Shown: positions 30,001-33,000, counted from the whole stretch's first letter. The stretch: DNA of 60,698 nt, filler included, from Candidatus Woesearchaeota archaeon (GCA_038825875.1; 4 parts of 4 records of this genome joined end to end with filler, not necessarily neighbours in it); one strand, 5' to 3'. Made by a program: the numbers.

Positions 30001-33000
30001 TGGAGGGGGTATTCCTTGGCAATATGTAAATTCTAAACCTGATTTAAGTGATATATTTAACAAAATTCAATCTCTAAAAACTTTTCTAAATTCCATGGGA
30101 ATTTTACTCATGTCTGAACCTGGGAGATTTATTGCTGCTCCAGCAGTAAGATTAGTTGCAACTGTAAAAAATGTATATGATAATACAATAATTCTCGATT
30201 GTTCAATATACAACGCATATATGGATACTTTTTTACTAAATCTGCGTCTGAGGCTTTTGAATGAATCTGAAGATGGTTATGAGTACTTAATTAAAGGATG
30301 CAGTCCCGATTCTCTTGATATCTTTAGATATAAAGTAAAACTCAAGAAAAAAGTTAAACCGGGAGATAAGATTGTTTTTTTGGATGCTGGAGCATACAAT
30401 TTTTATACTGAATTCCAACAACTCGATAAAATTGAATATGTAATTACTGATGATTTCCAGCAAGAAGAAGGTTATGATTCTTAAGATGTATGATAGATTG
30501 GATTAGAGCCTCATTAGTTCCCTTGTAGCTTTTTGAGAATTCCAGAATTTCTTTGAGAATCATTCTTAATTTTTCTTTTTCCATGTCATAATCAAATCTT
30601 TTTAGAAGATCATATTGAAAATCAAAAGAAGTATCTAGAGAAAAAACCTCTAATTCCTCAAAAGACACATGTAAGAAAGGCAGAGAGTACGATAAAATTT
30701 CATTAAAATCTCTCATTTTTTCAGGATAGTAAAATAAACAGTATAGGAAAATTGCATCTAAAAATTCCATATAAAATGGAATATTCAAATCAAAGGATCT
30801 GGCTTTAGGAAAATTTCCTTGCAAAAATTTAATCCTTTTATCCTTTTTGAGCATTCTAGAAGCAAACCTGCTTAATTCATCATCCAAAAAATTAAATGAT
30901 GATATTGATTGTTTTATTCTTTTTCTCAATATCTCTTTGAAACAGGTTTTGCAAAGTACTTGTGGGATGTACTTAAAAACCATTGCTTCTCTCTTTTTAC
31001 ACCTATTGCAAACTATCATAAATTTCAGAAAAGAAATGAGATATAAAAAATATCTGTTTCTACATTTCGTCGCTTGATTCTGGCTTATATCGATAGATAT
31101 ATCCTTTTTTCTCGATTCTCTTATAATCTACTGCATTTCTTTGGCGAAGTTTTTTCAGGTTGTTGCTTATTGATCCTTGAGACAGTTTTAGGTGCTCATT
31201 AATCTCTCGAGCTGTAAACCATTTATCCGGATGTTTTTTCAAAAAATTGTAAATATCTTGTTGACTCATTTTTATTTATAAAATAAATCCAAAAATATTT
31301 ATATTTTTCGTTTAACTGGCAAAAGATTACAATTAAAAAGGTTAAGTTTTATAAACTATTATACTTTTCTACTCCTAGTGATGACGTGAACTCCCGCTGA
31401 TCTATGATGACCGGAGTAACTGCTGAAATCCTAATCCATGCATGTTGTGGGCCCTGTACTTTATCTTCTTTGAAGACTATAGATCCAAAGAATGTTGTGT
31501 ATTACTTTTTTAACCCAAATATCTTTCCTTTTGAAGAGTATTGCAAACGATTAGAAACTTTTGAAAAAGCATGTAAGATCTTTAATTTAAACTATATTAC
31601 TGAAATCTACTCCCAGCAAGAATATGAAAAAGCCCACAGGGATTGGTTAATGGAAATAAGCAAGGTAGACAATTATTATGCTCTTAAGGAAAACAGTAAA
31701 AGATGTGAAAAATGCATTCAGTATCGGCTTAAAAAGATTGCTTCAATTTGCAAAAAAAACAATATACCTAAATTTTCAACAACATTAACTGCATCACCTC
31801 AAAAGGACATAAACCTTATAAAATCAGTAGCCCTTGTTGTATCTTCTACTGAAAAAATTGATTATCTAGACTATATCTTCAGAAAGAATAATTCGTTTCA
31901 GTTTAGTTTGGAAATCTGTAAAAAATATAATCTGTATAGACAAAATTACTGCGGTTGTGAGTTTAGTAAATCACCCTAACAAACTCTTAATCAAACGAGC
32001 TCTAGATAGAAAACCTGAACATATTTGAGAAAATAGCTTCATAGTTTCATTTCTATTTAAAACAAAATCTTTTCTAAGATTTACTCTTTCGACCTCTTTT
32101 CTGAAAAGTTTGGGATTATTTATTAGCTCAGTCTTATCTACTCCTCTAAAAATCATATAATGCTTTCCAAGCTCCCATGAAAAATGAGAATCGCTTCCCA
32201 ACACAAATCTCTTTTTAAAATTTTTTGATAGTAAAAATGCCTTATCTTGCAAAAAATTAAGACATCTACCGTTTATTTCAACATAATCAACTAATTCAAT
32301 CACTCCTTTCAATACTCTTGCACTGTTCGGCCTAGTGTAATCAAGAGGATGAGCTAACACAGAAATACCTCCTTGAGACCTTATCAAATCAACAGTTTCC
32401 TCCAAGGATTTCCAAGGTGGAATTTGTTCTTGGATGTAAAGAGCAACAACTTCTCCTTGTAGTGTTTTTATCTCTTCACCTGGAATCGTATTTGGGAGTA
32501 AAGTTAATCTGTTATGATCTGTTAGTGCAATTAGTAGGTTTTCATTTAAAAGTACCTTTTTTAAAATCTCTAAGGAATTGCCAGAACATCTGGAAAAAGA
32601 CGAATGCACATGAACATCTACCTTAAGAAGCTGTTTGTTTTTTGACATGAAAATAGCATTATTTTTTCATCAATATATAGTTTTTGGTTTTGATGGAAAT
32701 TTATTTAAATGTGAATTCACAAATAAAAAATTATGGTAGTGTCTCCTGAACAGATAATTGATTTTATTAGAAAAAATGGCCCATCTTTGCCATCTGAAAT
32801 AAAAACTGCCTTAAATGTAGATCTATTTATTCTTGGTGCAATTCTTTCTGAAATGGTAAAAAATAAGGAAATATTGATGAGTTATGGCAAGATAGGAAGT
32901 TCAAGTTTGTACTATTTGCCTGGACAAGAAGAAATGCTAAAAAGACTTTATGATTACTTAAAACAACCTGAAAAGGATGTGTTTAAAAAATTAGAGAGTT

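Follow-up and report, generated by a model that had tools for sequence, protein, structure and literature searches.

The only free-standing box C/D guide RNA found in a Candidatus Woesearchaeota archaeon (GCA_038825875.1; hereafter G000) belongs to a family whose D' arm appears to follow the identity of position 2552 in the A-loop of 23S rRNA. A guide arm directed at the A-loop is already known from N. equitans sR10; what sequence comparison adds is the apparent tracking of 2552 by guide position +5 through three Watson-Crick states (A-U, C-G and U-A) and, in the genus of G000, one wobble (U-G). The evidence tips slightly toward a reading in which this wobble would support weak or absent Gm2552 formation and the guide U would go back to an ancestor with A2552.

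The window analysed here is a 60,698-nt stretch of DNA, filler included, in which four contigs of the 747-kb, 30% G+C genome are joined; G000 sequences are present in sequencing runs labelled hot-spring metagenome, with no RNA run among those listed. The lineage is taken to be nanoarchaeotal and probably falls in Woesearchaeales, since named Woesearchaeota records share the A-loop of family f44 of its order. The sRNA gene lies on contig C15 (C15:14095 is window position 31378); the 23S rRNA that it targets is on contig C4, beyond the window, and is assembled there as its 3' half only. Coordinates are collected in Table 1. The TGATGA of box C, a string that belonged to the search pattern, is invariant in 26 aligned homologues. 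A sigma-70 promoter scan, which uses a model not suited to archaea, returned matches at chance level only. No base difference between 31378 and 31426 is listed in the covering contigs of two other runs, one of them from another study. One related RNA run has 0 reads over the entire 1.2-kb stretch, the sRNA and its surroundings alike.

Table 1. Features of the sRNA locus (window positions) and intron guides elsewhere in the genome (contig positions)
Feature	Coordinates	Strand	Evidence and target
TATA-like stretch, candidate promoter	31347..31355	+	22 nt upstream of box C; proposed from sequence alone
Box C/D sRNA core, dual guide, 49 nt	31378..31426	+	Boxes, scans, model R1 (61 bits; a training row of R1)
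Box C, GTGATGA	31378..31384	+	Sequence
D' guide, 12 nt	31385..31396	+	Against 23S 2549-2558 (G000 C4:1093-1102); +5 is T at 31392, facing G2552
Box D', CTGA	31397..31400	+	Sequence
Box C', ATGATGA	31404..31410	+	Sequence; queH of G000 probably starts at its ATG
queH (epoxyqueuosine reductase) ORF	31404..31979	+	PF02677, E 4e-45; overlaps 3' half of sRNA
D guide, 12 nt	31411..31422	+	Against 23S 2435-2445 (G000 C4:979-989); +5 is A at 31418, facing U2438
Box D, CTGA	31423..31426	+	Sequence
FEN1, 5' part, at contig end	33595..33971	+	XPG_N
tRNA-Trp locus with intron guide	G000 C1:28790-28899		D/C'-type boxes
tRNA-Met locus with intron guide	G000 C2:34913-35030		D/C'-type boxes
tRNA-Leu(CAA) locus with intron guide	G000 C4:4245-4376		D/C'-type boxes

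In the sister species G001 the queH start overlaps box D; a change of one base in length has moved it into box C' in G000. The D guide is non-coding in G001 and doubles as the first queH codons in G000. In G001 (L007 1500-1549), the GGAG of the guide lies ~10 nt before the queH ATG and could double as a ribosome-binding site. Overlap of sRNAs with start codons is already described in two earlier studies (PMC7994747, PMC6009581). A full FEN1 gene lies 2.2 kb downstream in G001, and FEN1-like genes adjoin the sRNA locus in other families too, as a neighbour cluster. G001 also carries a cas cluster (L366 2273-5497, with Cas6- and Cas1-like ORFs read from translations) ~9 kb from the sRNA locus.

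The survey's finding, an unannotated 49-nt C/D sRNA with perfect C, D', C' and D boxes and two 12-nt guides, is confirmed. The box pattern has one match in the window and none in 100 dinucleotide shuffles; a strict box pattern matches once in the 747-kb genome and not at all in the reversed genome. A relaxed scan of the genome with degenerate boxes yields five candidates, among which 31378-31426 alone has credible rRNA targets, and the covariance model R2 gives one strong match in G000 (44 bits; runner-up, 17). Strict scan, degenerate-box scan and covariance model alike reveal no second free-standing guide, in agreement with the claim that this is the only canonical free C/D guide of the genome. 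The element has the features of archaeal box C/D sRNAs, namely terminal RUGAUGA and CUGA motifs, internal D'/C' boxes and ~12-nt guides. No Rfam family matches it at gathering score, the best being sR9 (24.8 of 36 bits), through the boxes. A terminal stem covaries in the family (37 two-sided cells versus 0 of 500 shuffles), though it is not apparent in G000 or G001 as read from the alignment. Such a stem is common, but not obligatory, in archaeal box C/D sRNAs. The RNA class itself is ordinary: judged by its boxes and guides, 31378-31426 is a genuine guide gene of a known class.

Positions in 23S rRNA were assigned by alignment to the 2904-nt E. coli 23S, which places U2438 at C4:982 and 2552, a G in G000, at C4:1096. 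The D arm forms an 11-bp duplex with a Watson-Crick A-U2438 pair at +5 and one G-U at 2443; the earlier placement of +5 at U2438 stands, and the span of 2434-2445 claimed for this arm loses 2434. The D' guide had been placed on the A-loop with +5 at 2552, and this is borne out by a 10-bp duplex with G-U at +5. Shuffled guides score as well as the D' arm in 26 of 400 cases and as well as the D arm in 2 of 400; because the D' pairing is weak evidence in G000 alone, the D' target rests on comparative data. An antisense of at least 9 bp with a Watson-Crick pair at N+5 is present in the D arm and absent from the D' arm in both G000 and G001, which lowers the case for methylation of 2552 and leaves the class assignment intact, since one competent arm suffices. 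From its pairing, the D arm is predicted as the likely director of 2'-O-methylation at U2438. G000 and G001 have the same 10-nt core in the D' guide, between diverged flanks, and no perfect target for U at +5 was found in 16S rRNA, the whole 23S rRNA of G001 or tRNAs.

Elsewhere in the 23S rRNA of G000, the stretch C4:458-472, presumably helix 69, is nearly identical on the sense strand to the D guide plus box D and so complementary to 2435-2443; the D guide may have arisen from it, or it may form an alternative pairing within the rRNA during assembly. The PTC of G000 (C4:950-1200, L001) is very divergent compared with those of 12 U2552 relatives. A2448G, C2501A, A2571U and U2552G are common to G000 and G001, and the assembled sequence of G000 alone has G2494A, A2503C, U2504C and G2576U. 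The last of these is a linezolid-resistance allele in bacteria.

The D'-arm pattern was searched, with backward controls, in 401 genomes of the order to which G000 belongs. It matches in 26 genomes, with 0 matches for the backward controls, and every one of the 26 also has the 2438 guide, which formed no part of the search pattern. At +5 of the D' guide, A is present in 24 of the 26 (24 of 24 relatives), and T occurs in G000 and G001 alone. Every A-type genome with an assembled A-loop (13/13) has U2552, and G001 has G2552. The contrast previously drawn from fewer genomes, A with U2552 and U with G2552, is upheld on this larger set. In metagenomes, +5 is A in 63 of 63 matches (46 distinct), and a metagenome search with a non-A pattern at +5 gave 0 matches. 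An A-loop pattern is found in 210 of the 401 genomes, with eight true non-U matches, all in the G000 genus or in family f44. The non-U A-loop matches of G132 and G302 and one match of G322 are unlike rRNA and were dropped as chance; G445 has a U2552 match at a contig end.

Among the 63 metagenome matches, 36 (L201-L260) represent a second family, in which a U2552 D' guide is combined with another D guide, ending in GGGCGGG or GGGCGGA; some of the other matches have 2438-type guides with C-for-T changes. In many relatives (L009-L031), the 2438 guide has an extra variable base (A or T) at position 8, best read as a putative bulge in an otherwise 10-bp duplex. G353 has a second C/D RNA (C13:20202-20263; L284) with a 2438-type D guide and another D' guide, apparently directed against the 2440s-2450s. 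A loose D-guide pattern, tried as a family search, matched only G000 and G001 among 81 genomes; the D' pattern recovered the family.

Family f44 of the same order, with which named Woesearchaeota records share the A-loop sequence, has a purine at 2552 in 27 of the 28 A-loops found. Model R1 gave weak matches in f44 (19-29 bits), and R2 was therefore built with nine f44 homologues, which match it by construction; R2 detects C/D homologues in 22 genomes from a set of 61 and in one of five additional genomes. The f44 homologues adjoin the PAN gene, as A-type RNAs do. Their D' boxes are degenerate, their +6 pair is a G-U, and their second guide is of another sequence, for which only short target matches of 5-7 bp were found (best guess, C2515). 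With the guide register assumed from the alignment, +5 is C in 21 of 23 f44 guides and U in G408 and the unpublished G441. All ten C-type guides with an assembled A-loop face G2552 (G410, G423, G404, G440, G453, G402, G044 and the unpublished G407, G430 and G514); the count is seven without the three unpublished genomes, whose data need permission before publication. These ten pairs are kin, not independent events, and the whole comparison comprises about three evolutionary events.

G408 supplies the third Watson-Crick state. Its +5 base is U, and its f44-type 23S copy has A2552 and groups inside f44 (0.999); a second copy, on contig C19, has U2552 and groups outside f44. The U:A2552 pair comes from this single genome, which holds two 23S genes, and C19 was set aside as foreign on tree evidence; trinucleotide composition did not separate the contigs. 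The two 23S genes in the bin (C19 and C46; L347, L349) are distinct and lengthened by introns, and one of them is probably foreign to it. G431, a genus-mate of G408, has A2552 and gives no guide match with R2. In 13 other A2552 and six G2552 genomes of f44, no guide was found among the best 85 candidates per genome. A loose pattern run over f44 as a guide search matched at control level and was discarded.

A FastTree phylogeny (1423 columns) groups the G000 genus with the U2552 family f118 (support 0.999) and apart from f44, so that the change in 2552 and guide in this genus is independent. A2552 and G2552 interleave on the f44 tree, with at least three switches by reading of the tree; G432 aligned poorly in both trees. 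The claim that the guide tracks the mutated base is strengthened by the C:G2552 and U:A2552 pairs of this independent lineage.

Position 2552 had been described as supposedly invariant, which is contradicted by non-U bases common in several clades of both archaea and bacteria. A GTDB scan listed 121 non-U2552 loci from 19 of 64 parts, for an estimated ~420 overall; the 120 that were parsed (L154 was left out) comprise 92 A, 15 C and 13 G. Purine 2552 is accompanied by G2551 and A2557 in 103 of 105 cases, as read from the table of loci. A2552 recurs in Pacearchaeota, Armatimonadota, anammox Brocadiae and some Patescibacteria records (L049-L169), and C2552 occurs in Bifidobacterium and Olsenella. 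Neither R1, run over the genomes of 44 archaeal-looking non-U2552 loci, nor R2, run over 39, gave a credible homologue among the best 117-133 candidates per genome; the sole apparent match has the same coordinates as G402 and was treated as a duplicate. In E. coli, U2552G is compatible with wild-type growth when joined to U2555C (PMC9074899).

The core RNP genes are all encoded in G000: fibrillarin, Nop5 and L7Ae, the last with a match of 133.1 bits, slightly below the 134.6 cut-off. An FtsJ-family gene is, as had been stated, absent from G000 (no PF01728 match). The FtsJ-family gene of G001, raised earlier as a complication for 2552, encodes an S4+FtsJ protein that is TlyA-like and not RlmE, and so has no bearing on 2552. 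G000 has a single SpoU-family enzyme, of TrmJ type, and no protein enzyme for 2552 was found in its FtsJ and SpoU families. The proposal of a minimal fibrillarin system kept for the PTC is at odds with the presence of three tRNA-intron guides. The introns of tRNA-Trp, tRNA-Met and tRNA-Leu(CAA) each have a CTGA box, a C'-like box and a 6-7 bp guide whose +5 faces the tRNA's own C34, which suggests that fibrillarin is not kept for the PTC alone. ARAGORN miscalls the anticodon of tRNA-Leu(CAA).

In the proposed mechanism, L7Ae would settle on both kinks, C/D and C'/D', and recruit Nop5 and fibrillarin. Each 12-nt guide would pair with pre-23S rRNA, and methylation would fall, by the established N+5 rule, on the base that faces the fifth guide position upstream of box D or D'. 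The D arm would thereby modify U2438, and the D' arm would dock on the A-loop with +5 facing 2552, where the wobble would give little or partial Gm2552. The history would have run from U2552A, through a guide change from A to U that restored Watson-Crick pairing, to A2552G, with the wobble keeping the duplex. Selection for pairing would continue to act on the D' arm, however efficient or inefficient the methyl transfer. Because U pairs exactly with A2552 and f44 meets G2552 with C, the guide U was likely inherited from an A2552 ancestor; the 7:1 predominance of A over G, the interleaving of the two bases and the need for a Watson-Crick pair at N+5 also favour this history. Against such an ancestor, no A2552 relative of the G000 genus was found, and both known species have G2552. 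The history through A2552 also takes three changes, compared with two for a direct route.

The survey's finding held that the guide co-mutated with its target and likely makes Gm2552 through a G-U pair. Its first part agrees with the tracking seen here; its second part is weakened by the use of C for G2552 in f44 and by the N+5 rule. A direct route, in which U2552G was followed by a selected change of +5 from A to U and the G-U pair gives substantial Gm2552, is unlikely but deserves serious consideration. Two changes suffice for it, and the U is kept in both species, whose 23S 3' halves are 96% identical. Computed D' duplex energies are -16.7 kcal/mol for U-G, -12.6 for the uncompensated A-G, -17.6 for U-A and -19.7 for C-G; with U-G 4 kcal/mol more favourable than the uncompensated pair and only 0.9 less favourable than U-A, direct selection of U is plausible. 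G000 has no RlmE-type gene for the job, and the occurrence of the f44 guide mostly in G2552 genomes suggests that Gm2552 is valued. However, f44 answered the same problem with C, the +5 base of 21 of its 23 guides. Section 16 of PMC6009581 treats Watson-Crick pairing at N+5 as essential and also describes conserved N+5 mismatches with retained pairing, and the mapped Arabidopsis sites in PMC8053127 have G-U at duplex ends. A literature search found no paper testing G-U at N+5 specifically. High Mg2+ reportedly relaxes the Watson-Crick need in vitro (work attributed to Appel and Maxwell, 2007).

Neutral change is an improbable source of the guide U. On this account, U2552G ended methylation and +5 drifted to U, so that the arm would be a folding arm or relic and its match coincidental. 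A genome of ~30% G+C favours A-to-T change, two of the three possible replacement bases pair with G regardless, and Pyrobaculum sR09 has a single A-to-U change at N+5 for which loss of methylation is predicted in PMC6009581. The f44 guides with a known target of their own are nevertheless all Watson-Crick at +5, in two states, which indicates that selection at +5 does act after a purine switch. Drift and the preferred reading overlap in their predicted outcome, no Gm2552, and differ in history alone. It is very doubtful that the D' arm was retargeted to tRNA T-arms (G52), where the T-loop resembles the A-loop. tRNA-Thr(UGU) and tRNA-Lys(UUU) reach an equal raw score with 10 bp, and Pyrobaculum sR64 has a predicted target in the T-stem (G51). 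These tRNA pairings also have G-U at +5, though, with G in 12 of 12 matching T-arm sites of G000 and G001 and A in none; the duplex needs +1, which differs in G001, and without it the energy is -14.0 versus -16.7 kcal/mol. Moreover, the conserved G at +11 pairs with C2558 and not with a tRNA base, and A-loop pairing in relatives is perfect. That the RNA is non-functional, its boxes being leftovers used as the ribosome-binding site and start codons of queH, is scarcely credible. The overlap of the queH start with box C' or box D and a family stem that is not apparent in either species would fit this account, as would the frequent loss of guide function described for sense 5' overlaps in Pyrobaculum. 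Neither species has lost any of the four boxes or either guide core, however, despite the coding/non-coding switch of the D guide, and both guides still pair with their targets. The reading with weak or absent Gm2552 and an A2552 ancestor remains the preferred one.

Position 2552 adjoins the base that holds the A-site tRNA. Few rRNA methylations impair growth when they are lost, and Um2552 is one of them; an E. coli rlmE knockout grows two- to fourfold slower (PMC9074899). That the guide family follows 2552 from U to G and A suggests selection on the 2'-O-methyl itself, whatever the base. A bolder proposition, advanced only tentatively, is that the ribose methyl at 2552 and not the uridine is conserved: the guide family would have been rewritten for Um, Gm and Am2552, and the G000 genus would make Gm2552 through G-U, a natural exception to the Watson-Crick rule at N+5, in a PTC among the most divergent observed. 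The natural guide-target pairs A-U, C-G, U-A and U-G can be compared in one RNP and bear on the tolerance of wobble at N+5, and the GTDB scan reveals purine-2552 ribosomes in Pacearchaeota, Armatimonadota and anammox bacteria. In the open-access papers searched, no report was found of guided Um2438, natural purine 2552 or guide-target tracking at 2552; variants at 2552 may be listed in papers behind subscription or in supplementary files on bioRxiv, for instance the PTC tables that accompany 10.1101/2024.11.12.623245.

The closest known system is N. equitans sR10, an expressed sRNA with U2552 as a predicted target (Dennis et al. 2015, PMC4644070 section 9, supplementary file 1 row 256); in the same study, five of seven archaea have a C/D guide predicted to target U2552. 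sR10 shares the architecture of the G000 RNA, and several relatives have an A-type D' guide identical to that of sR10. It differs in its D arm, which is directed at E. coli position 2606, at the base of helix 93, and not at 2435-2445/U2438, and in having A at +5 against U2552, compared with U against G2552 here. In the Pyrobaculum dual-guide sRNAs sR33 and sR09 (Lui et al. 2018, PMC6009581) the duplex is likewise conserved around an imperfect pair at the targeted base, which is read there as a retained interaction with impaired methylation. Those are true mismatches at ordinary sites, whereas the case here is a wobble in the A-loop with a changed target base, and relatives of the G000 RNA track the target by Watson-Crick pairing in three states. 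Yeast snR52-Nop1, bacterial RlmE and Thermus RlmR share the aim of the D' arm, a 2'-O-methyl on 2552; unlike the D' arm in G000, all three act on U2552, and RlmE and RlmR are stand-alone proteins, as PMC12123411 describes. A survey of divergent PTCs that includes Pyrobaculum calidifontis (10.1101/2024.11.12.623245) names Thermoprotei and Methanomethylicia, and its main text makes no mention of 2552, DPANN, Nanoarchae or Woesearchae. The divergent PTC described there for P. calidifontis resembles the one seen here, with C2501A in both G000 and G001 and U2504C in G000.
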